A DNA stretch of 35,120 nt. Source: an uncultured bacterium. GTDB lineage: Bacteria; Hinthialibacterota; Hinthialibacteria; OLB16. A program made the position numbers and the translations under genes. The stretch spans positions 1-35,120 of the forward strand of contig CAZORO010000003.1 of assembly GCA_964581845.1 (NCBI GenBank). The letters run 5' to 3'. Positions 5,102-35,120 of this stretch are shown here, piece after piece; position 1 is the first letter of the stretch; each line of letters opens with the position of its first letter. The notes below the pieces were generated by a model, which was not told the DNA's origin, did not search any database, and worked only from the letters and a program-made list of their open reading frames with translations.

Positions 5102-5131
5102 TGAATCCACGAAAACGTTCACGTAGGTTCA
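5102..5131. promoter_or_regulatory. 30-bp imperfect palindrome centred on CG; candidate LacI-family operator
   Basis: TGAATCCACGAAAACGTTCACGTAGGTTCA matches its reverse complement at 22 of 30 positions by my count, with the centre at 5116/5117. It lies in the divergent intergenic region between the minus-strand operon and the LacI gene. Its core AACGTTCA recurs at 28570..28577 in front of the second LacI-controlled locus. Confidence 0.4.
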
Positions 5132-5467
5132 TTCTAAGCCTCCTTAAAGACCGAATGGGCAAGACGGAAGGTGGCGGAGGATATCCCCTTACCCGAAAAT
5201 TGAAACTGTGCTATTCTTATTTTGTCAAACTTCATTTGTCAAGATAAAGAATCACACAAGCCCGGAGAAGGTCATAAAAGAGATTAGAAGAGACAATACA
5301 AGGTCTGACCAATCCGTTCTTTACAAGGTTCTCGCTGAATCTGGTTATAAAAGCATGGGAACGGGAATCCTGGGAAAAGGATCAATGTTTAGCAGATGGG
5401 AAACAACACCTCTATAGACCTCAAACGCAATCTTTCCTATGATAGGGGAAAGCTGGATCTGCAATCC

Positions 5468-9457: not shown

Positions 9458-9482
9458 GGGGGCTTCCTTAATGGAAGCCCCC
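9458..9482 (+). promoter_or_regulatory. perfect 10-bp GC-rich stem-loop between the 783-aa gene and the first pseudopilin gene
   Basis: GGGGGCTTCC-ttaat-GGAAGCCCCC. No T-tract follows, so it is more likely a partial terminator, attenuator or RNA-stability element than a classical terminator. Confidence 0.5.
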
Positions 9483-10202: not shown

Positions 10203-10330
10203 TAAGGCGTAATAAAAAAACACAAATTCATCAGGAGCTGAAATCCTTTTATAATGCATTTCATCCCTGATAAGACATAAGGGATTTGGGTATTTCCCAA
10301 TATCCATCCCACGACAAGGAGGCAACCAAC

Positions 10331-10978
10331 ATGAAATGGCATTTCAAGGTATCTCAGGGTGGTTTTACACTTATCGAACTCTTGATCGTCATCGCCATCA
10401 TCCTGATATTGATCTCTATCGCCTTGCCGAATTTCCTGGAAGCCAAGACCCGGGCGCATGTCACCAAAATCAAGGGTGAAATGCATACTCTCCATATCGC
10501 GCTTGAGTCCTACCGTCAGGATTACGAAAATAAGAGGACCTTCATTCCCTCAGTTCCGTATGTAGTCAACGCAGATGGAGTCTATACCGCCTACCCGCTC
10601 CCCTATGATTACATTGGCAGGATCGGGCGCACTCCAAGAGTTGAAGACATCACCGTCAGGTGGGGACTCACCGAGCTGACAAGTCCTATCCAGTACCTGA
10701 AAACCCTCCCCTATGCCTCTTTCACCACCCTCGGATCACGCGAAGGTGGAAACTACAACGCTAAACCTGATGCCGGTTCGGCTTATGAACCAGCTTGGTA
10801 TTTTTACAAACAATATCAGGTTGGATGGAGAGCGGCAAAGGAATGGATGCTACGTGACACAGGTCCAGACCAGATCTTCAACAATGCATGGATGTCAAGT
10901 ATTGCTGAATCCCCCATGCTCTACTCACCCACAAACGGCACAATTTCCCGCGGAGATATCATCTTGCTGGGGCCATAA
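10331..10978 (+). CDS. prepilin-type N-terminal cleavage/methylation domain protein (GspG-like pseudopilin), paralogue B
   Basis: MKWHFKVSQGG|FTLIELLIVIAIILILISIALPNFLEAKTRAH. AAGGAGG lies upstream of ATG 10331, whereas the track ORF starts at 10286. Blocks LESYRQDY, LTSPIQYLKTLP, GPD and YSPTNGTISRGDI are shared with the other two paralogues. Confidence 0.9.
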   Translation: MKWHFKVSQGGFTLIELLIVIAIILILISIALPNFLEAKTRAHVTKIKGEMHTLHIALESYRQDYENKRTFIPSVPYVVNADGVYTAYPLPYDYIGRIGRTPRVEDITVRWGLTELTSPIQYLKTLPYASFTTLGSREGGNYNAKPDAGSAYEPAWYFYKQYQVGWRAAKEWMLRDTGPDQIFNNAWMSSIAESPMLYSPTNGTISRGDIILLGP

Positions 10979-16580: not shown

Positions 16581-16840
16581 TTATACGCAATCAAAAAGAA
16601 CCTCTTTAAGGGAAATAAGACGCAATTGTCCACGCCAGTCAATTTCGCTTCAGGCCATCGCTGTAAAAGCACCTGGCTGCTGTTACCTGGGCCGCAACCG
16701 ATATCCACTATATTTACAGGTGCCTGAGCCGTCTTGATCCGATTCACCAGATCAATCGATGGCTGTGTTCTCTCATTCCCATACTTGAGATAGTGGCCGG
16801 GATTCCAATCGTTTTGCTTTACCATATTGTTTACATTCAT
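16577..16840 (-). pseudogene. tam: 5' remnant of a trans-aconitate 2-methyltransferase-like (Tam) gene, ~70 of the expected ~250 codons
   Basis: DWNPGHYLKYGNERTQPSIDLVNRI..NIVDIGCGPGNSSQVLLQRWPEAKLTGVDN is co-linear with E. coli Tam ([56 protein letters not shown]). Homology stops right after VDN. The reading frame ends 16 codons later, and no other frame continues the match before the next gene. Confidence 0.6.
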
Positions 16841-21123: not shown

Positions 21124-21159
21124 CCTGGAGGGGGAGTCACCTCCCCCTCCAGGATCTTT
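21124..21159 (+). terminator. perfect 13-bp hairpin downstream of the YbaK-like gene; candidate intrinsic terminator
   Basis: CCTGGAGGGGGAG-tcac-CTCCCCCTCCAGG at 21124..21153, followed by ATCTTT. The T-tract is short. Confidence 0.5.
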
Positions 21160-21485: not shown

Positions 21486-23078
21486 ATGGACGAGAACGCT
21501 GTTGTTTTGGAACAAGCCGCAACAACACTCCGAATGGGAGACATGATCACGCTTATTCTCTACTTCGGAGCCACCCTGGGAATTGGTTTCTGGTGCATGA
21601 GGAAAAACAAGACCACGGATGATTTTTTCGTAGGTGGACGGTCCGTGCCCGGATGGGCCATCGGAGTCTCGATGCTCGGGGCGGCGATCAGCTCGATCAC
21701 CTTTCTGGCATACCCCGGCAATGGATACGCTAAGGACTGGAGTTATCTGGTTCCCGGCCTGATGCTTCCCTTCGCCGCTGTACTGGGGGCCTTTGTGTTT
21801 ATTCCCTTTTACCGCGCGAGCCGTTTTACCAGCGCATATGAGTACCTGGAGGGCCGTTTTGGCCCAGGGGCGCGAATCTATGGAGCCATTCTCTTTACCA
21901 TCCAATCCGCTTGGCGTCTGGGAAGTGTGCTTTACCTCCTGTGTATCCCCATCACAAGCCTGACCGGTCTGGATCCCAATATAGTGATCTGGGCGGTGGG
22001 TATCACTACCACCATCTATTGCGTAGTGGGTGGACTGGAGGCGGTGATCTGGACCGATGTGATGCAGACCTTTGTGTTTCTCATTGGTGGCATTGGTTGT
22101 GTTCTAACCGTCTTCTTATGGCCTGGAGTGGGTCCCGCCTTTGTGTTTGAAACCGCTTTTGCCGATCAAAAGTTCAATATTACCGCCGATACCACCTTTT
22201 CCTTTGCCAAGGAAACTTTCTGGGTGCTGGTTTTGTGGGGATTGGTCTCCAACATTCAAGAACATGTCAGCGATCAGGGCAAGATCCAGCGTTATTGCGC
22301 CGCCGCCAGTGATGGCGAGGCCCGCCGTGCCGTGCTCTTCAATGGGGTCGCCTGTATCCCGGTGTGGTGCCTGTTCATGTTCATTGGAACCTGTCTGTAT
22401 GCATTCTACAAAGTGGTTCCCGACCCAGCCGTGGCGGGCATGAAGGCGGATGAAGTATTCCCCCGTTTCATTCTGACAAGGATGCCCCAAGGGCTTTCCG
22501 GATTAGTGATCGCCGCCATTCTGGCGGCCGCCATGTCCACTCTCAGCTCCGCGATCAGCGCAGCAGCCAGCGTAATCACGGTCGATCTCTATAAACGCCT
22601 AGCTGTCAAGGGACGTGATGACAAGCATTACTTGTATGCGGGGAAGGCATTCAGCCTATTGTGTGGCGCCTCGATGATCATCACGGCGTTATTGATCCAG
22701 AAAGCAGGCCAGAGTTCGTTCTTACCGATGAGCTTTTTCATCACATCGATTGTGGTGGGAGGCCTGGGAGGACTCTTCTGCCTAGGATTGTTTTCCACAC
22801 GCGCCAACTCACAGGGAGCGATGGTGGGGATCGGTTGTGCATTACTGGTCACGGCCTACCTGACCTTGAGCGCGGTGGACAGTAATCCCGACTGGGGGCT
22901 GAATGTGTTACCGGATATCCTGCGTAGCCCCACACACAAGTTCATGATCGGTGTGTTCTGCAACATCGCTGCTTTTGTGGTGGGATATTTCGCGAGTTTC
23001 TGCTTCGCGCCACCCTCCAACCAGCAGATCGACCGGGCAACCTGGTGGACCCGCCGGAAGGAACAAACGGAGGGATAA
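21486..23078 (+). CDS. sodium:solute symporter family (SSF/SLC5-like) transporter
   Basis: RBS GAGGAG. A 530-aa polytopic protein carrying the N-terminal SSF signature DDFFVGGRSVPGWAIGVSMLGAAISSITFLAYPG and a later SGLVIAAILAAAMSTLSSAI. Confidence 0.9.
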   Translation: MDENAVVLEQAATTLRMGDMITLILYFGATLGIGFWCMRKNKTTDDFFVGGRSVPGWAIGVSMLGAAISSITFLAYPGNGYAKDWSYLVPGLMLPFAAVLGAFVFIPFYRASRFTSAYEYLEGRFGPGARIYGAILFTIQSAWRLGSVLYLLCIPITSLTGLDPNIVIWAVGITTTIYCVVGGLEAVIWTDVMQTFVFLIGGIGCVLTVFLWPGVGPAFVFETAFADQKFNITADTTFSFAKETFWVLVLWGLVSNIQEHVSDQGKIQRYCAAASDGEARRAVLFNGVACIPVWCLFMFIGTCLYAFYKVVPDPAVAGMKADEVFPRFILTRMPQGLSGLVIAAILAAAMSTLSSAISAAASVITVDLYKRLAVKGRDDKHYLYAGKAFSLLCGASMIITALLIQKAGQSSFLPMSFFITSIVVGGLGGLFCLGLFSTRANSQGAMVGIGCALLVTAYLTLSAVDSNPDWGLNVLPDILRSPTHKFMIGVFCNIAAFVVGYFASFCFAPPSNQQIDRATWWTRRKEQTEG

Positions 23079-23561
23079 AACCTGGGTTCCCAAACTCATT
23101 TCCCGAAGGGGATAAGGAGAGGATTCATAAGACCTTCAGCTCATTTCGATTTCCCTCTGCTCATTCTTTGCCTGGCCGCTTTCTCCTGCCAGGCCCAAGA
23201 CTCAACGCCGACACCATTCCCATTCTGGGCGGCCTCAATGGTGACGGCACGGTTGATGCCAAAGATCACTTACTGCCCCTCAACAATTGGCACAAGAGAG
23301 CGCAACCGGCCACCAGCGAAATCGAAATCATCGCAATCATGTTTACCCATCTCGAGAGTGGCGCGCGGCCATGGCGCCTGACGCGGATTCCGTCTGGGGA
23401 TTTTCCTGATGGGTAACTGGGGGACTGAACGGAAGCGAAGGATGGCTTTGCGCGCGGGAGGTTGATGGAGTCGTTAATGGCATACCAATCTGATTGTGCA
23501 GCATGAAAAACAAAGGTCTGAAAAAAAAGTACCATCCAACACCCGTAGAGGAGAGCGGCCA

Positions 23562-26500
23562 ATGCCACTTGTAATTCGATTATTGTTCATGGGATGCTTG
23601 TCTGTTCAATTGGCGTTATTCGGAGTGCAGTCCGTGGAAGCGGAAGAGGAAGTACGGATCTGGGAGGAAGCATTAACACTTCCAACATATGAAGTTGGAC
23701 CCGCGGATATCAATCCGCGCTTCTATGAAACCCGCACCTATCAAGGAGCGAAGGGGCCTGTCTATCCCTACCCCATGCTCGACACCTTGACGCAGACCAA
23801 AGCGGACCACACTTACAAGGCACTGTATCTAGAAAACGAATATGTCCGCTTCTGTGTTCTTCCGGAGATTGGCGGGCGGATTTTCGAGGCCTACGACAAG
23901 ACTAATGACCACCACTTCTTCTATAGGCAGCACGTGATCAAGCCCGACCTGATCGGTATGTTGGGAGCATGGATTTCAGGTGGGGTCGAATGGTGCGTGT
24001 TCCATCACCATCGCAACACCACCTTCATGCCCGTTGACCATCTCCTGGCGGAAAATGAAGATGGGAGCAAGACCATTTGGATCGGCGAGACGGAACGCCG
24101 TCATCGAATGAAGTGGGTGATCGGAATGACTCTCCATCCAGGGCAATCGCGGCTGGATGTGACAGTGAAACTGTTTAATGGCACCCCTTATGTCCACACG
24201 ATTCTCTACTGGGCAAATGTGGCTGTCCACGCGACGCCTGGTTACCAGGTCTTTTTTCCTCCAAGCACGCAATTTGCCACCTTCCATGGCAAGAACGAAT
24301 TCACGCATTGGCCCATTTCCCATGAAATATTCAACCAGATGGATTACACCAAAGGCGTGGACATCAGTTGGTGGAAGAATCATCCCGGCCCAACCTCTTT
24401 TTTCGCATGGAATGTACAGGAAGGTTTTTTCGCGGGTTACGATCATGACAAACATGCCGGGGTGGTGTATATCGCGGACCATCATGTCGCCCCGGGTATG
24501 AAATTGTGGACTTGGGGTACGCAGTCCACGGGAGACCGCATCAAGCTGACGGATAGTGACGGTCCCTATGCGGAAATCATGGCCGGCGCATTTTCAGATA
24601 ATCAACCCGACTACAGCTGGATTCAGCCACATGAGGTTAAGGTTTTCACACAGAGTTGGTATCCACTGCGTGAGCTCGGTGGCCTCTGCAATGCAACCCA
24701 GGATGCCGCGATAAACCTAACGGTATCCCCGGACGGTAAGGCTCGTATCGCATTCAATTCAGCCGGGAAGCACACACATGCGCGGGTTGTGTTGAGGGCC
24801 AAGGGTGACACACTTCTTGAAAAGATCATCGCGATTGACCCGGCTACGCCATATTCCGAGGTTATAACCCTGCCCCGGGGGGTTGAGGAGGCTGATCTGC
24901 GTGGAGTGCTCTACGATGAAGATGGGAATGAGCTCGTGTCCTGGCAGCGCAAGACCTATGATCCAGAGCCGATGCCGGAAGTGGTCACACCTCCACCTCC
25001 TCCAAAGGATATCAAGACGGTTGAGGAACTGTATCTGGCGGGCCATAGATTGCAGCAATTCCACCATCCCACGCTTGATCCGTATCCATATTATGAAGAA
25101 GCACTGAGGCTTGATCCAGATGATGTGCGCACCAACACGGCACTGGGCATTGAGGACTGTAAACGCGGCCTGTATGACCGGGCGGAAGAACACCTACAGC
25201 GAGCCGTGGCCCGCCTTACCAGGAACCACACGCGCCCCAAGGATGGCGAGCCGCACTACTATCTGGGCGTATGTCTGGCGGCCCAGAGGAAATATGACCT
25301 CGCCTATGATGCATATAGCCGTGCAGCATGGAACTCGGCATGGTATTCGGCGGCCAATTATGCGCTCGCCGAACTTGATTGCCGGAAGGGTGATTTCAAA
25401 CGGGCGCTCAAACATTTGGACCAGGCTATTACAGCCAATGCATTGGACACAAAGTCGCTGAATTTACGCGCGTCGGTACTACGGCATTTGGGCTGGACCG
25501 GCGAAGCCAGACAACAAGTGGAAGCGAGTCTCAACATTGACCCACTCGATTTCTGGGCGGGCAACGAGTTATTCCTGGCGGACCAAGCCCAAGGGAAAAC
25601 ACAGTCTGGTGAACACGCACGTAAAACTCTCAAGGAACGGATGCGCAATGAAGCCGAGTCTTATCTTGAACTGGCTTCAAACTATGCCGCCAGCACCATG
25701 TTCAAAGAAGCGATCGATGTTCTATCCCGTCTCACCGGAGGAGAAGAATCAGAGACCTATCCAATGCTCTATTACGATCTCGGTTATTACACCGCGCAAA
25801 CTGGGGATGCAACGCACGCTGCTGAGTACTACCGCAAGGCCAGCAGCATGCCAGCCACTTATTGTTTTCCTTTCCGGTTGGAATCGATTGGAGTCTTACG
25901 GGATGCCATCGCCACACATCCGGATGAAGCGCGCCCTTACTACTTTCTCGGTAATCTGCTCTATGACCTGCAGCCGGAGGAAGCAGTGAAAGCGTGGGAA
26001 AAATCAAGAGACCTTGACCCCACTTTCCCCACCGTGCACCGCAACCTCGGCTATGCCTATTCAAAGATTAAAGATGACTATCCAAAGGCTTTGGCTGAAT
26101 ACGAGCAGTCGGTAGCCTGCGACAACCGCGATCCGCGAGTGTTTTACGAACTTGAGCGACTCTATGAGACCGCCGGGACCGCTCCGGATGTCCGTCTCGC
26201 GCTTCTGTGCCAGAACCAGACAACCACGGACAAACGGAGCGACTTGGTGGCACGTCAGATTCGCCTTTATGTGCAGACCAGACAATACGATACGGCCATC
26301 GAAAAACTCACCAACAAACGTTTTGACACGTGGGAGGGTGGTACTGAAATCCACGACACCTACGTCGAGGCATACATCTTACGGGGCATGGAATCATTGA
26401 AAGCCGGCCAGGCTCAGGATGCAGTGCACGATTTCCAGGCGGCCCTTGAGTATCCAGAGAATCTCGGCGTTGACCGTCCGGTCCAGGATCCTCCAGCCGC

Positions 26501-26909
26501 GCGTACATATCTCTTGCTCACCTCTGCGTACGAAAAACTCGGCGATATACAAAACGCACACAAGCATCTTGAAGAAGCCGTGAAGATCGAGGTGGCTGGC
26601 ACCGAGTTCAGGTATCACAAGGGACAAGCCCTGGCCAAATCTGGAAAAATTCAGGAAGCCAAGGCGCTTTTTGACGGACTCCTGGCGGATGGGATGGCTC
26701 AACTCGAAAGTGGTGGATCTGTCGATTTCTTTATGAAGTTCGGAGAGAAACAAGCTCGCGGAGTACAAAGGGCAAAAGCGTATTATCTCGCGGGTCTCGG
26801 CGCTCTCGGCAACGGGGATATCACGAGGGCCAAGGAACTCTTCGAGGACGCACTCAAAGAGAATCCAAACCATCTATGGGCGCGCATGACATTGGAGGAC
26901 CTGAAATAA
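23562..26909 (+). CDS. secreted DUF5107-like domain protein fused to a long TPR region
   Basis: ATG 23562 is preceded by GAGGAGAG and gives signal peptide MPLVIRLLFMGCLSVQLALFGVQSVEA. The N-terminal half (LPTYEVGP, YPYPMLD, LENEYVRFCVLPEIGGRIFEAYDK, WISGGVEWCVFHHH, KLWTWG, LTDSDGPYAEIMAG) fits DUF5107 as I remember it. From about 25.0 kb the sequence is TPR-like (YEEALRLDPDD, YALAELDCRKGDFKRALKHLDQAI). Confidence 0.75.
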   Translation: MPLVIRLLFMGCLSVQLALFGVQSVEAEEEVRIWEEALTLPTYEVGPADINPRFYETRTYQGAKGPVYPYPMLDTLTQTKADHTYKALYLENEYVRFCVLPEIGGRIFEAYDKTNDHHFFYRQHVIKPDLIGMLGAWISGGVEWCVFHHHRNTTFMPVDHLLAENEDGSKTIWIGETERRHRMKWVIGMTLHPGQSRLDVTVKLFNGTPYVHTILYWANVAVHATPGYQVFFPPSTQFATFHGKNEFTHWPISHEIFNQMDYTKGVDISWWKNHPGPTSFFAWNVQEGFFAGYDHDKHAGVVYIADHHVAPGMKLWTWGTQSTGDRIKLTDSDGPYAEIMAGAFSDNQPDYSWIQPHEVKVFTQSWYPLRELGGLCNATQDAAINLTVSPDGKARIAFNSAGKHTHARVVLRAKGDTLLEKIIAIDPATPYSEVITLPRGVEEADLRGVLYDEDGNELVSWQRKTYDPEPMPEVVTPPPPPKDIKTVEELYLAGHRLQQFHHPTLDPYPYYEEALRLDPDDVRTNTALGIEDCKRGLYDRAEEHLQRAVARLTRNHTRPKDGEPHYYLGVCLAAQRKYDLAYDAYSRAAWNSAWYSAANYALAELDCRKGDFKRALKHLDQAITANALDTKSLNLRASVLRHLGWTGEARQQVEASLNIDPLDFWAGNELFLADQAQGKTQSGEHARKTLKERMRNEAESYLELASNYAASTMFKEAIDVLSRLTGGEESETYPMLYYDLGYYTAQTGDATHAAEYYRKASSMPATYCFPFRLESIGVLRDAIATHPDEARPYYFLGNLLYDLQPEEAVKAWEKSRDLDPTFPTVHRNLGYAYSKIKDDYPKALAEYEQSVACDNRDPRVFYELERLYETAGTAPDVRLALLCQNQTTTDKRSDLVARQIRLYVQTRQYDTAIEKLTNKRFDTWEGGTEIHDTYVEAYILRGMESLKAGQAQDAVHDFQAALEYPENLGVDRPVQDPPAARTYLLLTSAYEKLGDIQNAHKHLEEAVKIEVAGTEFRYHKGQALAKSGKIQEAKALFDGLLADGMAQLESGGSVDFFMKFGEKQARGVQRAKAYYLAGLGALGNGDITRAKELFEDALKENPNHLWARMTLEDLK

Positions 26910-27065: not shown

Positions 27066-28151
27066 TTACAGGGGCTTCGCCACGGAACTGGATACATACT
27101 GGGTGGATTTGCGCAGGATCAGCGTTGGTTCGAGGAAAACCTGCTGACGTACTTTATCCCAGTCTTCTTCCGGACCGAGCATCTGTAGGATAAGCATCGC
27201 TCCCAGACGGGCGATTCGTTCAGCATCCTGCCAGATCGTGGTGAGTGGTGGTGTAGAGAACTCGGCCATCTCAATGTTATCATAGCCGATAACCGAGACA
27301 TCCTCGGGCACACGGATCTTTTCCTCATAAAGTCTGTGCATCAGTCCCAGTGCAACTGCATCGCACACACAAAAGACAGCCTGGACTTCATTGGAACGGA
27401 TCCGTTCCACAAGTTCGCGTGAACAAGCATAACCAGCTTTCGCAGTGTCAGCATAAACATGGGGGAAAAGAAGAGGTTGGACTGCCCCATTCGATTCCTC
27501 GATGGCTCTCAGGAACCCCTGGCAGCGTGGTGTGCGGAACGACTCGGTCTCCCAGTTTCCTGTGAAATAGGCAATCCTCTTGTGCCCTATGTCGATCAGG
27601 TGCTTCGCTGCGAGGCGTCCTCCGACTTCATCATCATACCCAACAAAGTGCAATGGGAGTTCTTCTCCGTATACAACTAGATATAGAAGCGGTATCCGGT
27701 GATATCGAAGCATTTCAAGGGTCTGGGGAGTCAGAACCGTCATGGAAATCAATCCATCCACCCGTCTCTCCACAAGAGATTCGGCACATTTGTTGGACTG
27801 CTCGATGTTGTCGGATGTGGTCAGAACATAACTAAAGTAACCTTTATCCTGGAGGGCTTGCTGAAGAAAAGAGGTGATCTCTCCCAGATAAGGGATTCTC
27901 AGGTCGGGTACGAGAACACCAATGGACTGGGAGCTCTGGAGAACCAGGCTGCGGGCATCCCGGGATGGAACATAGTTAAATGTTTTGGCGAGTTGCTGGA
28001 TTCGCCGCCGGTTCTTCTCACTGACTCCCGGGAAACCCCGCAAAGCTCGAGAAACGGTATTCACTGAGAGGTTCACTTCATTAGCAATATCTTTAAGTGT
28101 TCTGCGCATGTTGTTTGAGCCGGACAATTCGGGCTTGGTTCGGCGAGACAT
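27066..28151 (-). CDS. LacI-family transcriptional regulator (second copy)
   Basis: Helix-turn-helix TLKDIANEVNLSVNTVSRALRG with a sugar-binding body (IGVLVPDLRIPY, VFCVCDAVALGLMHRL, VSVIGYDN). The start may instead be ATG 28109 (MRRTLKDIA). Confidence 0.9.
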   Translation of the reverse strand: MSRRTKPELSGSNNMRRTLKDIANEVNLSVNTVSRALRGFPGVSEKNRRRIQQLAKTFNYVPSRDARSLVLQSSQSIGVLVPDLRIPYLGEITSFLQQALQDKGYFSYVLTTSDNIEQSNKCAESLVERRVDGLISMTVLTPQTLEMLRYHRIPLLYLVVYGEELPLHFVGYDDEVGGRLAAKHLIDIGHKRIAYFTGNWETESFRTPRCQGFLRAIEESNGAVQPLLFPHVYADTAKAGYACSRELVERIRSNEVQAVFCVCDAVALGLMHRLYEEKIRVPEDVSVIGYDNIEMAEFSTPPLTTIWQDAERIARLGAMLILQMLGPEEDWDKVRQQVFLEPTLILRKSTQYVSSSVAKPL

Positions 28152-28186
28152 AGCCCGATTTCTGATCTATACATTACTTAATGGGG

Positions 28187-28195
28187 ATTAACGTT
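28187..28195. promoter_or_regulatory. ATTAACGTT site 1 of 3; candidate LacI operator overlapping a possible minus-strand promoter
   Basis: The core TTAACGTT is at 28188..28195. On the minus strand, TTGACA (28200..28195), an 18-nt spacer and TAATGT (28176..28171) would form a promoter for the LacI gene, with this site inside the spacer. Confidence 0.35.
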
Positions 28196-28345
28196 GTCAA
28201 CACACGGAAGTGATGGCCCGATAAGCGGGAAATCTTCCGAATATGGTTCCTGATTTCAAGAGATTTGCAGTCTTGTATTGGCAAAATATCTGAGATAAAG
28301 AGCTCCTGACACGATATAACTGAAAAGGCCCGAGAGAGTTTGCTA

Positions 28346-28353
28346 AACGTTAA
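28346..28353. promoter_or_regulatory. AACGTTAA site 2 of 3, the reverse complement of the TTAACGTT core
   Basis: TGCTAAACGTTAACTC, in the middle of the 517-bp divergent intergenic region. Confidence 0.3.
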
Positions 28354-28565
28354 CTCTGAAATGGCTCCATCAAGGAGGTCATTCATTTCTTTATAGTTAT
28401 AGTTTACAGGGCTTCTTCTTTCGATCTTGTTGGGTGCGCCTATCTCTTAACTCTATTTATGGTACTCATATTACTTGACTTATGTTATTCCTCGCTGATG
28501 ATGTGGGAAAATCTGAGGGTTTCATCTTGACATCCATTCAAAAAGCGATAGACAATAATCTCGAA

Positions 28566-28579
28566 CATTAACGTTCATG
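28566..28579. promoter_or_regulatory. CATTAACGTTCATG, a 14-bp near-palindrome (site 3 of 3); best LacI-type operator candidate
   Basis: 12 of 14 positions are self-complementary around a central CG. It lies about 90 nt upstream of the beta-helix gene ATG. It shares AACGTTCA with the palindrome at 5102..5131. Confidence 0.45.
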
Positions 28580-28668
28580 TTATGTAAACGAATTTGTTGG
28601 TTGAGTTGTCCATCGGAAATGGACCATATCCCGTGGGTCGGGAAAGGATCCTTGGCAAAGGAGTATGA

Positions 28669-30171
28669 ATGATGATCAGTCGAAAATCTGTTTGGGTATG
28701 TGTAGTGGTGTTAGCGTTAGCGTTTGGAGTTACACCTGGATTCGCGGCGACAGTGACAGTGGGGCCAGCCGGACCACCCACATACAACTTCGCGCTCATC
28801 TCAGAGGCGGTCACCGCCGCAGGCAATGGTGATACCATTGATATCGCCGCTGGCAATTATGACGATTGGGTCGGTATCATCGGAAGAAGCAATCTCACCC
28901 TTCAGGGACCGGCGTCGGGAACTCCCGCGGTGGTCAAGATTTCCGCCTCCAATGTGGTGAATCAGGGCATCTATATCGCTGGGCAATCAACCAATATCAT
29001 TCTTCGCAACTTGTCGGTGGACATGAGCGCGAATAATGGTATCGAATACCGTGCCTGCATTTCCGTCTATGAGGGGGCGGCGGCCACATTGGATCACCTG
29101 GACCTCTACGGGGCTGGAAGGATTGTCGATGTCTTCAATGGCGGACGTCCCACCATTACCAACTGCAATTTACATGATGCCACTCCGCGCGATTTCGGCA
29201 ATGGCGATGCCTCATCAGGGGTGGAAGTCCAGGGCGTGACAAGTACCTTCGGTTATGCAAACGCAACGATCCATAACTGCAGCTTTTCCAGCATCGGCCA
29301 CCCGATCCGAATTCTTGCAAATGAGACTGGAACGCCAAGTTTGGCCCAGAATTATATGGGCAACCTGACCGTTCAGCACTGCACCTTCAATCATTTTGGC
29401 GGCGAGTATGGGATTGCCCTCCGGTTTGATTCACCCAACTGGGCACCCGATAGCACGGTCCTCTTTGAGGATTGTACGTTTACAGATTGGACTGGACATG
29501 GTATTTTTACCAACGCCTATCCCGATACAAATACTGGACCTTCCAATTTCATCGTTCGCCGCTGCGAGATGATCAATGACCTGACGGCTTATCGCGCGGG
29601 GACCGGTCTTTTCCTTGGCTATAACTCAAATATTCTTCTTGAAAATGTCGCCATCGCAGCCTTTGCGAATGAGGCAGTTTACATCCACGAGCCTTGTGGA
29701 AATATTACTATGCACCAATGCAGTATCAACAATGTGAACGATTCAGTAATGGCTCAGCGTTTAACAATCCACAATCCAACAGCAACCATCCGCAACTCGA
29801 TTCTGAGAACTCCCAACGGTTTTTCATGGGAGGTCTCGCCGACATATGGTTCGGCTACGTCGATCTCCTATGATGTTGACTATTCCATTTTTAATTCTGC
29901 GAATGCAAAGGATTTCTCAAGTGATGTTCATACCGTGACTCGTGGCGCTCACTACACCTACAACACATCTCAAGTCAATTATCCCATGTTTGTGGATCCA
30001 GAGGCAACTGGAGATCTCCATCTCCAGGATGGTTCTCCCGCAATCAATGCGGGGATGAACCTTGGAATCGCCATTGACGTGGAGGGAAAACCACGCGATG
30101 CCACTCCTGACATTGGTGCATATCAGCAATCAGGTGTAGATTCATCCGTTAATAATTGGTCGTTGTATTGA
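28669..30171 (+). CDS. secreted right-handed parallel beta-helix (pectate-lyase-fold) repeat protein
   Basis: RBS AAAGGAG lies 5 nt upstream. Signal peptide MMISRKSVWVCVVVLALAFGVTPGFAA. Periodic PbH1-like turns are present (LRNLSVD, ITNCNLHD, IHNCSFS, VQHCTFN, FEDCTFT, VRRCEMI, MHQCSIN, IRNSIL). The typical C-terminal tail is DLHLQDGSPAINAG...DVEGKPRD..PDIGAYQ. Confidence 0.85.
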   Translation: MMISRKSVWVCVVVLALAFGVTPGFAATVTVGPAGPPTYNFALISEAVTAAGNGDTIDIAAGNYDDWVGIIGRSNLTLQGPASGTPAVVKISASNVVNQGIYIAGQSTNIILRNLSVDMSANNGIEYRACISVYEGAAATLDHLDLYGAGRIVDVFNGGRPTITNCNLHDATPRDFGNGDASSGVEVQGVTSTFGYANATIHNCSFSSIGHPIRILANETGTPSLAQNYMGNLTVQHCTFNHFGGEYGIALRFDSPNWAPDSTVLFEDCTFTDWTGHGIFTNAYPDTNTGPSNFIVRRCEMINDLTAYRAGTGLFLGYNSNILLENVAIAAFANEAVYIHEPCGNITMHQCSINNVNDSVMAQRLTIHNPTATIRNSILRTPNGFSWEVSPTYGSATSISYDVDYSIFNSANAKDFSSDVHTVTRGAHYTYNTSQVNYPMFVDPEATGDLHLQDGSPAINAGMNLGIAIDVEGKPRDATPDIGAYQQSGVDSSVNNWSLY

Positions 30172-30181
30172 TCTTTATAAT

Positions 30182-30232
30182 GGCTGGGAGTAAGCTGGAT
30201 TAATCGCTCTCCTTACTCCCAGCCAAATTTTT
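30182..30232 (+). terminator. perfect 13-bp hairpin plus T5; candidate terminator or attenuator between the beta-helix gene and the third pseudopilin
   Basis: GGCTGGGAGTAAG, a 17-nt loop, then CTTACTCCCAGCC (30182..30224), followed by AAATTTTT. It begins 11 nt after the upstream stop and ends 22 nt before ATG 30255. Confidence 0.6.
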
Positions 30233-30254
30233 GAAAGCAAGTATATTTAGAAGG

Positions 30255-30851
30255 ATGGAGGTATTTGCTGTGTCATCCAAGCGTGGCTTTACTTTGATAG
30301 AATTGTTGATAGTGATCGCCATCATCCTCATACTCATTGCGATCGCCCTTCCCAATTTCTTGAGCGCCCAAATCCGCGCCAAGATCACACGCAACTATGC
30401 CGACATGAGGTCCGTGGCGACAGCACTCGAGGCCTACCGTGGCGACTACCAAAAGTACATTTCGGGGGTGATCAATAAGACTCCGGGAAACTTCAAGAGC
30501 TATCTTCAACGCCTAGTGCCTTTGACAACACCCGTTAAATATATGACAACTGTTCCAGATGATATTTTCAACGGGAATGGGGAACAGCCACCCTATAATG
30601 AGTTCAAAACATTCGACTATTTCCTCTATGAAGACCTGAATCCAGGTTCATTGATTGAATTTTATGATATTCAGGGTAGACCCATCCGTGCTCCTTATCA
30701 AATGCGGGGTTGGGGTCCAGACCGGGATAATGACCGCTACAGTGGGGCCCGCCTGAGTCCCCCTCAGGGTCCCATTCCATATAATCCCACAAATGGTACG
30801 GACAGCAATGGCGACCTGAAATATTTCGGTGGAAGGGGCTACCAGTTCTGA
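30255..30851 (+). CDS. prepilin-type N-terminal cleavage/methylation domain protein (GspG-like pseudopilin), paralogue C
   Basis: MEVFAVSSKRG|FTLIELLIVIAIILILIAIALPNFLSAQIRAK, with the shared blocks LEAYRGDY, LTTPVKYMTTVPDDIF, GWGPD and YNPTNGTDSNGDL. The track start at 30231 is a TTG inside the terminator T-tract, so ATG 30255 is preferred. Confidence 0.9.
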   Translation: MEVFAVSSKRGFTLIELLIVIAIILILIAIALPNFLSAQIRAKITRNYADMRSVATALEAYRGDYQKYISGVINKTPGNFKSYLQRLVPLTTPVKYMTTVPDDIFNGNGEQPPYNEFKTFDYFLYEDLNPGSLIEFYDIQGRPIRAPYQMRGWGPDRDNDRYSGARLSPPQGPIPYNPTNGTDSNGDLKYFGGRGYQF

Positions 30852-30907
30852 TTCAACCGCCATGGAACGAGGACGTGATGCTTTTGCTCTAAGTTGCGCC
30901 TGTCAAT

Positions 30908-32719
30908 ATGGATATTCGATATACCGAGATGGGAAACCTTTTATACTCCATCCAAGAGGTATTAGATCCCGGGGGAGGGGAGAAATACCATCAGCCTGAA
31001 GGTATGTCCCCCTCACTAAAAGCCATCACACGGAAATTGAGGTGGTACATCGCCCTCGGGATTGTCCTACTGCAACTTGCTGTTTATGCAGTAGAACCTG
31101 TTCAAATTAACGATCACGATCTTCGTCTCGCGCTGCAATGGAGCATTCACTGCATGTCCAATGTACAGAACCCTCAGGACCGTTACATTCCTTATTTCGA
31201 CTGCTATGTTCTACAGAACCCGCCCTATATGCTATACAACGCTTACTACAGCGTACCGGTCAATGCGGCCAAAATTCTCGAGGCGCTGCTTAAGACCGAG
31301 GCTGCATCCGGTCTTGTGGTGGACCCCATTGTCATTCAAAGATATCGTCAAGTGGTTTTCGATTCCTTCACCCCTGTTCCAGGTGTCTGCGCTGCCCCAG
31401 ATAGCGTTGGTGCTCCATATAATACTTATTGGACGATCAATGGTCACGCCATGAGAGCCCTAGCGGCATTAGTGAAGTATCGTAATGATGGAGAAGCTCA
31501 GAATCTCATGGAACAAGGGATCTCAAACCTTAAAAATTATTTTGTCGATTTCGGCTATAGTTGGGCCGCTTTCAGGGAGCATTTCGGCCTCCCTCTCACA
31601 GGGGGAATTCTTGGAGTTGGATGGCCAAATGCGAATCCCGGTTATGGAGCGGATTCAACCTGTATCCTGGCTTTCCTTGAATATTACCAATGGACTGGAT
31701 ATGGTCCTGCGCTTGATATGTGTCTGAATTATTCAAGAAACCTAATGAACCTCCGGTTTCCCGTGGATGGAACTTTTCCTCCCAACACTTACTTCATGCT
31801 TGGACCAACACGTGAGATGAATGCCCTGGCACGGGTGGCTCTAGAGATTGGCGATGCAACCATGATGACACGAGCTCGCGCGCGTTACGAGAATGGACTT
31901 CACATGGTCCGCAATTCGACTGGATGGGTTCCCGAGAACACTCGTAGCCAAAGTGACACGGGAGAGATTAATACTACTGGAGAACTCGTGGAAACTGCCA
32001 TGATTTTCGGCGACTGGGGATGGACTGAATACTATGAGGATGCAGAACGGTTCACGCGAGCTCATCTTCTTCCATCGCAGCTGCTTGACAACTCCTTCGT
32101 GGCCGCGCACTCCGACCTGAGTGATTCCAAGAACGATATCAAAAACAGAACAAAAGGAGCCTTCGGTTTTCCGGCTCCCTATGGACATATCGCCACCAAG
32201 AACTCAAGACATCAGGGTGCCTTTCACATGGATATCGTCGCTGGAGGCGCATTATCACTCTCTGAAGTGGTCATTCATGCCTATGAATATGAAAACGGAG
32301 ATCATTATCTGTACATGCTCTTCGATCAGGATAATAACCATATCTGGGTAAAAAGTCCCTATCCCGATGGAGATACCCTTGAGATTAATCTAAGGACAGA
32401 GGGAGACCTACACATTCGAATGCCTTCTTGGATTGACCGTGACACAATTTCTTTACTAGTTTCTAAAAAGAATGGCTCTACTGAAGTGTCATTCGATGGG
32501 CCTTTCATGGTGTTGTCCAACCCGCCAGTAGGTGAGAATTTCTCAATCCGGATGGAAATTCCATTCAGAATGGAGACAGAAAATGTTAACGAAAGAGAAA
32601 TTTCGATTCTATGGCGGGGTGATTCCGTGGCCGCTATGAATCAGATGGGATGTCCTCTTCCCTTCTTTCTTGAGTTCTACATCCCATCGGAAGTGGATTC
32701 ATGGAGAAATTACCAATGA
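30908..32719 (+). CDS. membrane-anchored uncharacterised protein, helical-toroid-like; paralogue 1
   Basis: 603-aa track ORF. One hydrophobic span, LRWYIALGIVLLQLAVYAV, follows a ~43-aa leader. Blocks are shared with 32801..34390 (DTGEINTTGE, YYEDAERF, HLLPSQLLD, KGAFGFPAPYGH, DIVAGG). Helix-pair patterns (HAMRALAALVKYRNDGEAQNLMEQGISNL) recall DUF1680/GH127-type six-hairpin proteins, but without the ETC(A) Cys motif. The start is uncertain; ATG 31004 is an alternative. Confidence 0.7.
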   Translation: MDIRYTEMGNLLYSIQEVLDPGGGEKYHQPEGMSPSLKAITRKLRWYIALGIVLLQLAVYAVEPVQINDHDLRLALQWSIHCMSNVQNPQDRYIPYFDCYVLQNPPYMLYNAYYSVPVNAAKILEALLKTEAASGLVVDPIVIQRYRQVVFDSFTPVPGVCAAPDSVGAPYNTYWTINGHAMRALAALVKYRNDGEAQNLMEQGISNLKNYFVDFGYSWAAFREHFGLPLTGGILGVGWPNANPGYGADSTCILAFLEYYQWTGYGPALDMCLNYSRNLMNLRFPVDGTFPPNTYFMLGPTREMNALARVALEIGDATMMTRARARYENGLHMVRNSTGWVPENTRSQSDTGEINTTGELVETAMIFGDWGWTEYYEDAERFTRAHLLPSQLLDNSFVAAHSDLSDSKNDIKNRTKGAFGFPAPYGHIATKNSRHQGAFHMDIVAGGALSLSEVVIHAYEYENGDHYLYMLFDQDNNHIWVKSPYPDGDTLEINLRTEGDLHIRMPSWIDRDTISLLVSKKNGSTEVSFDGPFMVLSNPPVGENFSIRMEIPFRMETENVNEREISILWRGDSVAAMNQMGCPLPFFLEFYIPSEVDSWRNYQ

Positions 32720-32800
32720 AGATCTGTATTCATCTGATCCATACCGGTCCAAGTCATGTGGGCACCGTGCTCGTATAAAATCTAGAACAGGAAGATTTAC

Positions 32801-34390
32801 ATGTCAATCATCCGTCTTTCGGAAACCGTAAAGGCTGCTGTTGAGAATATCTGCCGGATATTCGATCCGGATATGGGCAAGGTCCCGTACTTTGGAGTCG
32901 CGCTCTTGGACCCACGCCCCCATTTCTATCATATCCCCTTCTTTGATATATCTCATATGCCGGGACGTGCGCTCGATGCACTTCTTCTGGCGGAACACAC
33001 TTTCTCCCTAGACCTTGATGAGGCCGTAGTTGAGTGTTACAGATCGGCACTCATGGAGTCCTTTGCCGGTGAGGACGCACTGAATGGATACTATGATGAG
33101 AAACTGAAGAGGAAGCGGGTGGCTTTTCACAACCTGCGTGAAGGCTTGCAGGGATTAAATGCTCTAGTCAAATTCCGGGATGACCAGAAGGCCCGTGCCT
33201 GCGCTGAAAGGATGGTACAGCGTCTATCCAGCCTTGTTAATGCGGATGGGACCTGGAATCCAGATAGGTGGCAAACTCACCCGGAGTACCTTCCACTCGG
33301 TGATGTGGTCCAGCATGACAAGTATTTGACATCCACCGCGGGGAGGCTGATCGGTTCACTTGTTAAATACTACACCACTACGGGCAACGCGCAGGCACTT
33401 GACCTCGCCACAAAGTTCAAGTCCGCTGTGTTGTGTGAGTGTTTCGATGAGGAAGGCAGGGCTACAGACAAGGCTGGCTGGCATGTTCATTCCATTACCT
33501 CAACGATCAGCTCTCTCGCTCTCCTGGCAGAGGCTCTAAATGACTCAAGCCTAAAAATACAGGTTGGAATACTCTACAGGAGCGCTTTTGATGGAAGGAT
33601 CATGACCACTCTGGGATGGTCTAAAGAGAATCTCGAAAATGATCTTGATGTCGGCGAGATTAACAACACCGGCGACATCATCCAGACAGGTCTTCATTTG
33701 GCTGAGTGGGAGTCCCCTCAATATTATGAGGATGTCGAACGGATGCTACGCTCGCATGTCATCCCTTCACAATTGCTTGACACGGAATGGATTCAACAAG
33801 TCAGGCAACCGGCGGGAGATTTTGAAAGAGATATTCCTTCCCGTGTCCGGGGAGCATTCGGGTTTCCGGCACCCTATGGCCATCAGGCAGCCAGTACAGA
33901 TTTCCTCAATTTTAATTTCGACATCACCTGTGGAGGGATACAGGCTCTGTGCATGGTTAGTAATAAAGTAGCCGGCATGAATCCGGATCTGCATGTCAAC
34001 CTGCTCATTGATCATACCTCCCCCGAAGTCGTGGTCCGATCCCGGTTTCCAGCCAGCAATGAGTTTACTCTCGAGGTTTTCACCAGCCAGTGTTGCGATG
34101 TTCGTATCCCTGAGTGGATTGAACAGAAGAGTATTCAAGTTCATAGATGTGAAAAACTGATTCCAGCTTGGGTCGATAATGGATACCTACACCTTGGAAA
34201 AGGCCCTGCGGTTTTCCAGATCAACTTTCATGCGGGCAACAAATGGACAGAGGAATGGATCAACGGAAGGTCGTATCATGTCAACTGGAAGGGAAATCAG
34301 GTGATCGCAATGGAACCCACATGCGATTTCCTGCCATTCTTCAACCGTGCTCATTTAAGAGAAGCTGTAATCCAAGGTAAACAATACTAG
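32801..34390 (+). CDS. uncharacterised protein, helical-toroid-like; paralogue 2, with no signal peptide or TM segment
   Basis: RBS AGGAAG lies 6 nt upstream. 529 aa, with blocks DVGEINNTGD, YYEDVERM, HVIPSQLLD, RGAFGFPAPYGH and DITCGG that are co-linear with the upstream gene. HNLREGLQGLNALVKFRDDQKARACAERMVQRL is a helix-pair pattern. Confidence 0.75.
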   Translation: MSIIRLSETVKAAVENICRIFDPDMGKVPYFGVALLDPRPHFYHIPFFDISHMPGRALDALLLAEHTFSLDLDEAVVECYRSALMESFAGEDALNGYYDEKLKRKRVAFHNLREGLQGLNALVKFRDDQKARACAERMVQRLSSLVNADGTWNPDRWQTHPEYLPLGDVVQHDKYLTSTAGRLIGSLVKYYTTTGNAQALDLATKFKSAVLCECFDEEGRATDKAGWHVHSITSTISSLALLAEALNDSSLKIQVGILYRSAFDGRIMTTLGWSKENLENDLDVGEINNTGDIIQTGLHLAEWESPQYYEDVERMLRSHVIPSQLLDTEWIQQVRQPAGDFERDIPSRVRGAFGFPAPYGHQAASTDFLNFNFDITCGGIQALCMVSNKVAGMNPDLHVNLLIDHTSPEVVVRSRFPASNEFTLEVFTSQCCDVRIPEWIEQKSIQVHRCEKLIPAWVDNGYLHLGKGPAVFQINFHAGNKWTEEWINGRSYHVNWKGNQVIAMEPTCDFLPFFNRAHLREAVIQGKQY

Positions 34391-34399
34391 AATTGTATC

Positions 34400-35120
34400 A
34401 TGAGAAGTCTTGTTGTGGATATTGGATCGGCAGGCCGGTTAGCCGCAACGCCGATGGCTGTTCCAATTATTGTCATCCTGGTGGTCTTCGGACTTTCGTG
34501 TTCACGGGATCCAATTGACCTTCTGTCCCATAATGAGAAAGTAACAATCAAATTCTCCACGTGGGGAAGCCCAGAGGAGATGACAATCAACAGGCGTATT
34601 GTTAAAGCTTTCATGGATTCACACCCGGGAATAAAAGTCGAGATTATGCATATTCCGGGCGCTCTATATAACACCAAGCTTCAGATCCTAAACGCCGCCG
34701 GGGTTGCACCCGATGTGATGTGGCTCTCGGCTTGGCAGGCTGTCGCCCTGTACGAGAACAAGCGTTTACTCAGCCTGCGTCCTTTTATCGAACTGGAAAG
34801 AGAGAAACAACCGGATTTTCTCCGTGAAGAGGACTCGTTGATCAAGTATTGCCAGGATTCTTTTACCTTCAAAGGTGAAATACTCATTTGTCCCTTAGGA
34901 CCGGTAACATTTCATCTTTACTACAACAAGGATCTGTTTGACAAGGCTGGAATTTCCTATCCTGATGAAACCTGGGATTGGGAAACTTTTAGAAGGGTTG
35001 CGATTCAGCTGACCTTATTTGAGGGGGAACGGCCGGTCCAATTTGGCACCAATATTATCCCTTGGTGGGGATTCTGGCTGAATTTTGTATGGCAGAATGA
35101 AGGAGAGCTATACGATAGAA
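34400..35120 (+). CDS. ABC transporter extracellular solute-binding lipoprotein (sugar type), 5' part; runs off the right edge
   Basis: Not in the track because it is open to the edge. My translation from ATG 34400 is MRSLVVDIGSAGRLAATPMAVPIIVILVVFGLSCSRD (lipobox-like GLSC), then KVTIKFSTWGSPEEMTINRRIVKAFMDSHPGIKVEIMHIPGALYNTKLQILNAAGVAPDVMWL...YYNKDLFDKAGISYPDETWDWETF. This is the classic family-1 SBP N-terminal pattern. Confidence 0.8.
   Translation, partial: MRSLVVDIGSAGRLAATPMAVPIIVILVVFGLSCSRDPIDLLSHNEKVTIKFSTWGSPEEMTINRRIVKAFMDSHPGIKVEIMHIPGALYNTKLQILNAAGVAPDVMWLSAWQAVALYENKRLLSLRPFIELEREKQPDFLREEDSLIKYCQDSFTFKGEILICPLGPVTFHLYYNKDLFDKAGISYPDETWDWETFRRVAIQLTLFEGERPVQFGTNIIPWWGFWLNFVWQNEGELYDR

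Follow-up and report, generated by a model that had tools for sequence, protein, structure and literature searches.

Why does a single prepilin-type gene stand inside what looks like a sugar operon with a repressor of its own? The question is raised by locus B, which occupies the end of a 35,120-nt stretch of DNA from an uncultured bacterium (contig CAZORO010000003.1, assembly GCA_964581845.1; hereafter the window). The gene map of locus B rests on open reading frame (ORF) listing and on Pfam and NCBIfam scans of the window. A preliminary description had reported a divergent LacI gene facing a co-directional run of a beta-helix gene, a hairpin, a pilin gene (pilB), two large genes (B603 and B529) and the gene of an ATP-binding cassette (ABC) sugar-binding protein (SBP), and all of these were found in place:

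27066-28151, minus strand: LacI-B, a LacI-family regulator (PF00356 46 bits, PF13377 117 bits, PF00532), divergent from the operon
28152-28668: spacer of 517 bp between LacI-B and the beta-helix gene
28669-30171, plus strand: gene of a 500-aa beta-helix protein with a signal peptide, a right-handed beta-helix and a C-terminal choice-of-anchor Q domain
30172-30269: gap of 98 nt, with a hairpin at 30181-30225
30181-30194 and 30212-30225 (arms), plus strand: stem-loop with a perfect 14-bp stem and a 17-nt loop, then AAATTTTTG; terminator- or attenuator-like
30231-30851, plus strand: prepilin-type ORF pilB (PF07963/TIGR02532), the likely gene being 30270-30851
30908-32719, plus strand: B603, an exported 603-aa protein with an (alpha/alpha)6 fold plus a beta-sandwich, without a Pfam model
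32801-34390, plus strand: B529, a cytoplasmic 529-aa paralogue of B603 without a signal peptide
34400 to the window end (35120), plus strand: ABC sugar-binding lipoprotein, start only (SBP_bac_1, SBP_bac_8; lipobox-like GLSC)

The locus is a concrete test case, in which a single pilin holds a fixed slot of a repressor-controlled sugar operon. Comparison with relatives indicates that locus B is a conserved glycan-utilization operon and that the pilin belongs to it as an integral part maintained by selection. The closest genomes are GCA_964481775.1, which carries the locus L089, and GCA_964422415.1. Among named organisms the nearest are metagenome-assembled genomes of Sumerlaeota/BRC1 and "Omnitrophota", and these more distant hits suggest a Sumerlaeota-like placement. 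A synteny search recovered locus B gene for gene in L089 and in rearranged form in L004, L001 and L007, and the other pilin-bearing locus of the window (locus A) in L174, which bears out the earlier view that the gene order is not chance adjacency. L089 reads LacI (minus strand), beta-helix, pilin, 595-aa protein, 529-aa protein, SBP, two permeases and an 807-aa B603-like protein with Laminin_G_3; identities to the window are 95% for LacI, 84% for the beta-helix protein, 92% for the pilin, 76% for B603, 76% for B529 and 80% for the SBP. The order in L004 is LacI, cupin, oxidoreductase, beta-helix, pilin, B529-like protein, SBP, permeases and two or three B603-like genes, with identities of 55% (LacI), 45% (beta-helix), 61% (pilin), 41% (B603), 51% (B529) and 60% (SBP). 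L001 carries a LacI-like gene (minus strand, 40%), an unrelated secreted 492-aa protein, the pilin (63%), a canonical GH127 protein with Laminin_G_3 and a different ABC system, and has no homologue of the beta-helix protein, B603 or B529. L007 has LacI (25%), an unrelated secreted 1076-aa protein, the pilin (50%) and an 854-aa B529-like protein, 27% identical to B603 and 40% to B529; neither a beta-helix homologue nor an SBP is present.

In these comparisons pilB is among the best-conserved genes of locus B, at 92% in L089 as against 76–84% for the flanking enzymes, and it appears to be under stronger constraint than they are. Its slot is fixed. In every locus of the pilB orthogroup, including L004, L001 and L007 with pilins 50–63% identical to that of the window, the gene is flanked by that of a secreted protein on one side and a GH127-superfamily gene on the other, and replacement of the upstream partner has not changed this. 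The upstream partner is the beta-helix protein in three loci and an unrelated secreted protein in L001 and L007, and the downstream partner always belongs to the GH127 superfamily. Covariation of pilin clade and payload, which the preliminary description had put forward for testing, was seen in part: the clade of pilA1, a locus A pilin, goes with CBM9 proteins and pilB with the GH127 superfamily downstream, whereas the partner upstream of pilB varies. Taken together, the sequence comparisons suggest that the pilin held in locus B works with the sugar enzymes. A metagenome scan with pilA1 alone found no relatives; the matches listed in a scan with the pilB-orthogroup alignment were distant paralogues only (at most 41% identity over full length), with no new orthologous loci among them.

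The gene pilB probably starts at GTG 30270, 8 nt past a GGAGG motif, which gives the leader MSSKRG/FTLIELL (the slash marks the predicted cleavage site). The sequence around this site, KRG/FTLIELLIVIAIILILIAIALP, is that of a prepilin, with a basic leader ending in Gly, Phe at +1, Glu at +5 and a hydrophobic helix of ~20 aa. Both prepilin models matched above their cut-offs (PF07963, 33.6 bits with a cut-off of 21.2; TIGR02532, 34.2 bits with a cut-off of 16.3). Across 123 aligned pilin sequences the F, T, L, I and E of the leader motif are invariant; the alignment runs from an invariant FTLIEL...PNF N-terminus through a variable middle to an invariant GPD and (Y)xPTNGTxSxGD, and contains no cysteine. 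The pilB head, ~130 aa long and free of Cys, ends in this motif as GPD...YNPTNGTxSNGD. In the AlphaFold model of pilB (predicted local distance difference test score, pLDDT, 90.5), an N-terminal helix of 52 residues (residues 8–59) carries a small, compact, strand-poor head, the lollipop shape of a pilin.

Foldseek matched this model to pilins and pseudopilins only, and weakly, the best E-value of 0.1 being reached through the helix. Against EpsG, PulG and GspG of enterohaemorrhagic Escherichia coli, E-values were 1.1–5.7 and TM-scores 0.45–0.54 by target and 0.25–0.33 by query. A profile search of the PDB matched only the pilB helix, to Geobacter PilA, Myxococcus PilA and GspG. With the GspG model TIGR01710, pilB scored 46 bits, below the cut-off of 88.85, over residues 18–78 only; PF08334 matched none of the window pilins and is precomputed for some family members. 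The acidic loops GPD and TNGTxSxGD, without Cys, would be compatible with a C-terminal loop stabilized by Ca2+ as in GspG. It can safely be said that pilB encodes a prepilin-class subunit with GspG-like traits, which fails the curated GspG model and lies outside any gsp operon. Two further assignments were tried and rejected. Membership of the DUF1559/H-X9-DG family gained no hit for pilB, pilA1 or the second locus A pilin, pilA2 (PF07596 at E ≤ 0.01, TIGR04294 at E ≤ 0.1), and the Verru_Chthon cassette models matched these pilins in the N-terminal helix only, at 12–22 bits with cut-offs of 70–256.

Control of the operon was analyzed in the 517-bp spacer. LacI-B has the two parts of a LacI/GalR regulator, an N-terminal LacI helix-turn-helix and a periplasmic-binding-protein-like effector domain (Peripla_BP_3/1), and the spacer in front of it holds the following elements:

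28190-28195: AACGTT-core site, candidate auxiliary operator beside the lacI start, in an island conserved with L089
28346-28351: second AACGTT-core site, GCTAAACGTTAA, candidate auxiliary operator, conserved in L089
28527-28556, plus strand: sigma-70-like promoter of the beta-helix gene, TTGACA-18 nt-GACAAT, with the -35 block TCTTGACATCCA kept in L089
28564-28581: 18-bp LacI-type palindrome AACATTAACGTTCATGTT, candidate main operator, 8 bp 3' of the -10 element

The promoter is the top promoter-like match of the region (10 of 12 positions). The palindrome has a single copy in the window, with none expected in shuffled sequences, and L089 has its equivalent, GAACATTAACGTTCACGTT, at the same place. 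As a candidate operator it fits the LacI/GalR pattern, which is palindromic over 16–20 bp, with a central CG, and located at the promoter. The spacer has mostly diverged from that of L089, and the conserved islands in the alignment are the -35 element, the palindrome, the AACGTT sites at 28190 and 28346 and a segment of the 5' untranslated region (5'-UTR). Three of the seven AACGTT copies in the window fall inside the spacer (binomial P ~1e-4). We infer from this layout a classical LacI-type repressor with main and auxiliary operators, to which LacI-B would bind. The palindrome motif was not found upstream of pilB or elsewhere in the window, and there is no sign that LacI controls the pilin separately. 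The conserved 5'-UTR segment (28600-28650, upstream of the beta-helix gene) contains two small hairpins, GTCCAT...ATGGAC and CCCG...CGGG, and could be a leader element.

The first gene of the run encodes the beta-helix protein (PF13229, E = 9.7e-16; NF041518, choice-of-anchor Q, E = 9e-9), with the N-terminal signal peptide MMISRKSVWVCVVVLALAFGVTPGFA. It matched no PDB entry by sequence and is a putative glycanase or lyase. The hairpin behind it is perfect and stands ahead of the pilin, as had been described, with a stem of 14 bp instead of 13. Its free energy is -37.7 kcal/mol (z = -4.5 relative to shuffled sequences). In L089 it shows three compensatory pair changes (G-C to A-U once, A-U to G-C twice) and is followed by TTTTTT, and in L004, L001 and L007 non-homologous strong hairpins occupy the same position (z = -2.5, -3.0 and -6.3, respectively). 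The gaps 3' of pilB and 3' of B603 contain no structure. Because the hairpin is conserved with compensatory changes and absent after pilB and B603, it appears to be a functional RNA element that marks off the first gene from the pilin. An Rfam search of the window matched no known RNA family. The hairpin has the strong stem of an intrinsic terminator and a U5-6 run 1–3 nt 3' of it, with a 17-nt loop that lies outside the scanner rules; most simply, it would be a partial terminator or a 3'-end stabilizer. The window has three strong perfect hairpins between genes, two of which immediately precede a pilin gene; strong hairpins also terminate unrelated genes (e.g. 21124-21153). A TATATT at ~30243 was considered as the pilB promoter and dropped, since it is not kept in L089.

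Downstream of the pilin, B603 and B529 are paralogues (26% identity, E = 1e-53), as had been proposed. No Pfam or NCBIfam model matched B603, and B529 matched PF07944 partially, over ~105 residues only (30 bits, cut-off 24.9). The 102 homologues of B603, from Sumerlaeota/BRC1, Poribacteria, Caldilineaceae, Latescibacterota and Pirellulaceae, are all named hypothetical. Direct sequence searches of the PDB with B603 and B529 gave nothing useful, and the family profile reached E ~0.002–0.009 with alignments over flanking segments only. The AlphaFold model of B603 (pLDDT 94.2) is an (alpha/alpha)6 toroid plus a beta-sandwich, and its top 21 PDB matches in Foldseek were all GH146, GH127 or BT_1003 (E = 6e-14 to 7e-11). 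Judged by this model, B603 is a distant structural relative of GH127/GH146. B603 and B529 share their toroid and beta-sandwich with the GH127/GH146 beta-L-arabinofuranosidases HypBA1, BT0349 and BT1003; in contrast to these enzymes, to which it is 10–15% identical, the B603 family has no invariant Cys. In an alignment of 96 family sequences, Cys was absent from invariant and ≥90% columns, and the invariant residues include Glu, Asp, His and Asn, among them E281, E291, H324 and D380 in the numbering of mature B603. With no conserved Cys, the family is not expected to retain the Cys nucleophile and Zn(Cys3Glu) chemistry of GH127/146. As an uncharacterised cysteine-less relative of GH127/GH146, it is a candidate new glycoside-hydrolase family.

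From its annotated start, B603 has a 40-aa cytoplasmic tail and a transmembrane segment. If translation began instead at an internal ATG (M33, nt 31004), the N-terminus would be a canonical Sec signal peptide with cleavage at VYA/VEP; the orthologue P0122 has AHA/VD. The protein, previously called membrane-anchored, is exported in either case and may be cleaved and secreted from the internal start. B529 and most members of the B603 family lack a signal peptide, and the two proteins may form an outside/inside pair acting on the polymer and on imported oligosaccharide. Some homologues (P0137-P0139, P0136, P0127-P0135) bear C-terminal dockerin (PF00404), PKD or Laminin_G_3 domains, which points to surface or scaffold attachment in some lineages. 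The last gene was correctly recognized as that of an ABC sugar-binding lipoprotein, by SBP_bac_1 and its lipobox-like GLSC. Locus B has no SusC/SusD pair, and uptake is by the ABC SBP and permeases; it fits the looser pattern of a carbohydrate-active enzyme (CAZyme) gene cluster, with regulator, transporter and CAZyme-like genes, and not that of a Bacteroidota-type polysaccharide utilization locus (PUL).

The preliminary description had set locus B beside locus A, which consists of:

5396-6490, plus strand: LacI-A
7048-9399, plus strand: secreted CBM9 protein
9458-9482, plus strand: 10-bp GC hairpin ahead of pilA1
9513-10202, plus strand: pilA1, a pilin
10286-10978, plus strand: pilA2, a pilin
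11090-15049, plus strand: A1319, a secreted protein of 1319 aa with weak MGH1/rhamnosidase six-hairpin hits

The two loci do share the order LacI, secreted protein, hairpin, pilin and large protein, except that locus A has two pilins and no transporter within the window. LacI-A, taken as divergent like LacI-B, is in fact co-directional with its run. The payloads of the two loci are indeed unrelated, with no BLAST similarity; the three window pilins are 34–36% identical pairwise, and LacI-A and LacI-B 31%. The large proteins of both loci, earlier described as helical, look like six-hairpin glycosidase-type folds, although the hits of A1319 are weak. The locus A neighbourhood is repeated whole in L174 (pilin 87% identical), and a paralogous locus in the same genome, L175 (pilin 68% identical), comprises AraC (minus strand), a CBM9 protein, an 844-aa protein and two pilins. 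On the strength of L174 and L175, the pilA1 clade goes with CBM9 proteins and its regulator type is not fixed. Neither locus A spacer was found to contain a 16–20 bp palindrome; an AACGTT occurs at 5114, in the divergent spacer 4960-5395 upstream of LacI-A.

The pilins of the window belong to a very large family. Among the candidates scored, pilB matched at least 1,914 clusters at E ≤ 1e-5 and pilA1 at least 5,810 at E ≤ 1e-10. A scan of species-representative genomes gave at least 391 confirmed relatives, the best 80 of which come overwhelmingly from Sumerlaeota/BRC1 and "Omnitrophota" metagenome-assembled genomes, several per genome. A neighbourhood survey with a simple ORF caller and a family hidden Markov model covered 93 pilin genes in 83 loci. 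LacI was almost never near the pilin in this set, and the neighbours were heterogeneous. Co-directional upstream neighbours included T2SS-F, prepilin peptidase, FG-GAP proteins and many housekeeping genes; those downstream included Laminin_G_3 (5 of 40), GH127, 3-keto-disaccharide hydrolase, fucose isomerase, sulfatase, melibiase and an SSF transporter, along with LytB, MraZ and response regulators. Genes for T2SS-F, T2SS-E and prepilin peptidase adjoin some paralogues in relatives, and tandem arrays of three to five family genes occur in others (L042:3700-9000; L033; L087; L046). The L046 and L087 arrays resemble conventional pilus or type II secretion system (T2SS) minor-pilin sets.

The Laminin_G_3 domain, a ConA-like lectin/glucanase, was enriched downstream of family pilins (5 of 40) relative to at most 1 of 140 genes that lay at least four genes from any pilin in the same loci (Fisher P = 0.002; P = 0.007 without the orthogroup loci). 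Paralogues at 42–47% identity adjoin molybdenum-cofactor, lipid, pseudouridine-synthase and ribosomal genes, and one such paralogue is found in the L089 genome; the context of the L176 pilin (56% identical to pilA1) is non-glycan too, with a faint cohesin hit near it. Homologous downstream neighbours were found for ~0.1–0.3% of pilin pairs below 45% identity, 5% (6/120) at 45–60% and 29% (6/21) at ≥60%, i.e. synteny is lost fast below ~50% pilin identity and neighbour homology is at background below ~45%. Searched against 1.84 billion proteins, the pilB head alone found 2 representatives of 50% clusters at E ≤ 1e-10 and 58 at E ≤ 1e-3, so few that pilin heads appear to diverge fast between paralogues and to be held tight within an orthologous locus. 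Of the original inference, the non-chance organization holds for locus B; a general modular system with a variable payload is not supported, since the family is dispersed, LacI is dispensable (AraC in L175) and the pattern is mostly one of descent. The broader idea of a module that combines LacI, a CAZyme, a hairpin, a pilin and a large protein around an exchangeable payload is thus weakly supported.

Precedents were sought in the literature on pseudopilins with CAZymes or PULs. One relevant study was found, on Verruconatronum alginivorum, and nothing relevant on DUF1559 or Sumerlaeota pili. In this verrucomicrobiotal species a gene cluster induced by alginate includes a PulG-like pseudopilin gene, over-expression of a pseudopilin is seen on this substrate, and the genome has 67 pseudopilin paralogues (PMC13274419, 2026). 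As in locus B, a single GspG/PulG-like gene with many paralogues stands in a cluster that degrades a polysaccharide and includes genes of a regulator and of secreted enzymes; the phylum and the pilin subfamily differ, the payload consists of alginate lyases of polysaccharide lyase (PL) families, and no conserved hairpin or operator was reported (PMC13274419). Locus B also invites comparison with better-known systems. In the Klebsiella pul system, pullulanase and its T2SS are under MalT, and the machine is complete (pulC-O, with one major and four minor pseudopilins). Both systems have divergent promoters and place a pseudopilin in a sugar regulon together with a secreted enzyme that degrades glycans; locus B differs in that its pilin stands alone, with no machinery within 35 kb. 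PilA of Caldicellulosiruptor bescii reportedly adjoins a glucan degradation locus, and Ruminococcus albus CbpC/GP25 and Myxococcus PilA, which binds exopolysaccharide, are said to be polysaccharide-binding pilins. There too pilin-class proteins are located or regulated with glycan-degrading genes; polysaccharide-binding type IV pili are built of major subunits of a dedicated pilus operon in one or a few copies, in contrast to the dozens of dispersed, head-variable paralogues here. DUF1559/H-X9-DG (PF07596, TIGR04294) and Verru_Chthon are likewise large paralogous prepilin-leader families of CAZyme-rich genomes, from which pilB, pilA1 and pilA2 differ in their C-terminal signature YSPTNGTxSxGD.

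Locus A, locus B and L175, together with the alginate-cluster pseudopilin, the lectin enrichment downstream and the swaps of upstream partners, point to a subset of pilins truly linked to extracellular glycan processing. The reading that we tentatively prefer, and consider quite possible, is that locus B is a LacI-repressed glycan-utilization operon with a locus-specific pilin, which is fed to a shared T2SS- or type IV pilus-class machine and tethers glycan or enzymes at the surface. LacI-B would bind the 18-bp palindrome over the transcription start of the sigma-70-type promoter as well as the two auxiliary AACGTT sites, and induction would allow transcription of the secreted beta-helix enzyme gene. 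The terminator-like hairpin would pass only part of this transcription on to pilB, B603, B529 and the ABC sugar importer. The product of pilB, as the locus-specific member of a massively expanded GspG-like prepilin family, would be cut by prepilin peptidase between G and F and assembled by a T2SS- or type IV pilus-class machine encoded elsewhere. Its head, fast-diverging yet conserved within the locus, would serve its own locus, most likely by displaying a surface for binding on a short fibre; the fibre would hold either the target glycan or the secreted enzymes at the surface of the cell, so that oligosaccharides would be freed beside the ABC importer. By extension, the dispersed head-variable pilins of Sumerlaeota-like (and, convergently, Planctomycetes-Verrucomicrobia-Chlamydiae, PVC) bacteria might form a surface-recognition repertoire, each inducible operon giving its own subunit to a shared fibre machine to make glycan-specific "fishing" or enzyme-tethering fibres. 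This extension is rather unlikely; if true, the repertoire would do with pilins what SusD-type proteins do in binding glycan at the surface.

Several observations weigh against tethering by a locus-specific fibre. Foldseek found no recognisable carbohydrate-binding fold in the pilB head (pilin matches, E ≥ 0.1), and neither the 35-kb window nor the L089 locus contains T2SS or type IV pilus machinery genes. The pilin family as a whole is not glycan-specific, since many paralogues lie in housekeeping contexts, and the Laminin_G_3 enrichment comes from crude ORF calls and small counts. Most of the recurrence that we observed appears to be orthologous synteny by descent and not repeated assembly of a module. 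Finally, the hairpin and its U-run could wholly end the beta-helix transcript and leave the pilin in a separate unit; a conserved promoter between the hairpin and pilB was looked for and not found.

It is also conceivable, though somewhat unlikely, that pilB encodes a cargo-matched major pseudopilin, which is induced along with the enzymes, enters a shared T2SS and drives or specifies the outer-membrane export of the beta-helix protein, B603 and the Laminin_G_3 paralogue. The GspG-like traits of the family (an N-terminus that matches TIGR01710, PF08334 in some members, the lack of Cys, the acidic C-terminal loops) and the Sec signal peptides of the flanking proteins speak for such a role, and the Klebsiella pul secreton, encoded in the maltose regulon next to pullulanase, is a precedent. 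The authors of the Verruconatronum study read their alginate-cluster pseudopilin in this way (PMC13274419). Against it, one machine would require dozens of alternative major subunits, paralogues stand beside cytoplasmic housekeeping genes that offer nothing to secrete, and the pilB head superposes poorly on GspG (E > 1, TM-score 0.45–0.54 on target). Moreover, the T2SSs that have been studied recognize cargo mainly through the minor-pseudopilin tip and GspC/GspD, not through the major subunit.

The housekeeping contexts raise a different explanation, that proliferating, dispersed pilin paralogues landed at sugar loci and are not functionally coupled to them, the gene order reflecting descent and the hairpins being plain terminators. 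Thousands of clusters in many contexts, neighbour homology at background below ~45% identity, the rarity of LacI near distant members and the strong hairpins that end unrelated genes as well (21124-21153) are all in keeping with this view. It is nevertheless improbable, given that the pilin is conserved at 92% in L089 where its neighbours reach 76–84%, that its exact slot is kept despite an upstream swap and LacI identities of 25–40%, and that pilB runs in the same direction as the downstream enzyme gene, from which only a short, unstructured gap separates it. Independent cases of the association are locus A, L175 (with AraC) and the verrucomicrobial alginate cluster with its substrate-induced pseudopilin; in addition, Laminin_G_3 is enriched among downstream neighbours. 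Very improbable, in our judgement, is a use of the prepilin N-terminus as an export or anchor device only, in the manner of the class III signal peptides that sugar-binding proteins of Sulfolobus carry (the "bindosome"), with the head as a non-fibre accessory of the ABC importer or a sensor. The distance from the pilin to the SBP and permeases is indeed one gene in L004 and two genes in L089 and the window, the pilin heads vary and are of small size, and DUF1559, a related PVC pilin-like family, is filed in Pfam as SBP_bac_10. Yet an SBP fold is missing from the pilB head, a canonical lipoprotein SBP is part of the operon anyway, locus A has pilins without a transporter, and the invariant E5 and long hydrophobic helix are hallmarks of polymerising pilins.

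Parts of this picture are familiar. Orphan prepilin-type gene expansions have long been noticed in PVC bacteria, Sumerlaeota and related uncultured phyla with CAZyme-rich genomes; LacI-controlled CAZyme clusters are ordinary, and orphan prepilin swarms are a known oddity. New here are the lineage and the pilin subfamily, a pilin that is better conserved than its enzymes and keeps its position as its partners change, the conserved hairpin and operator, and the cysteine-less GH127-like family. If the pilin does bind substrate or specify enzyme export, this would explain the paralogue swarms and add a component to models of polysaccharide capture outside Bacteroidota.

Some further features of the window were noted. 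A domain of ~130 aa is shared by three secreted locus A proteins (blastp): it occurs three times in tandem in the CBM9 protein (aa 74-186, 190-344 and 365-504), once at the C-terminus of A1319 (aa 1165-1317) and in the protein encoded at 535-3657 on the minus strand (aa 70-171), and might serve the whole locus as a module for binding or anchoring. The A1319 coding region contains a perfect inverted repeat (13353-13388) with 14-bp arms and a loop of 8 nt. The 87-aa ORF at 16577-16840 (minus strand) has an N-terminal S-adenosylmethionine-binding methyltransferase motif only and overlaps each neighbour by 4 nt; the ORF represents a truncated gene or else a small fragment gene. Between the two loci, a 1137-aa secreted DUF5107 and multi-TPR protein (23496-26909, plus strand), convergent on LacI-B, stands beside a sodium:solute symporter (21486-23078, plus strand), and the genes at 21486-26909 may constitute a third sugar-related unit. 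In L076, a homologue of DUF5107 is found close to a pilin.

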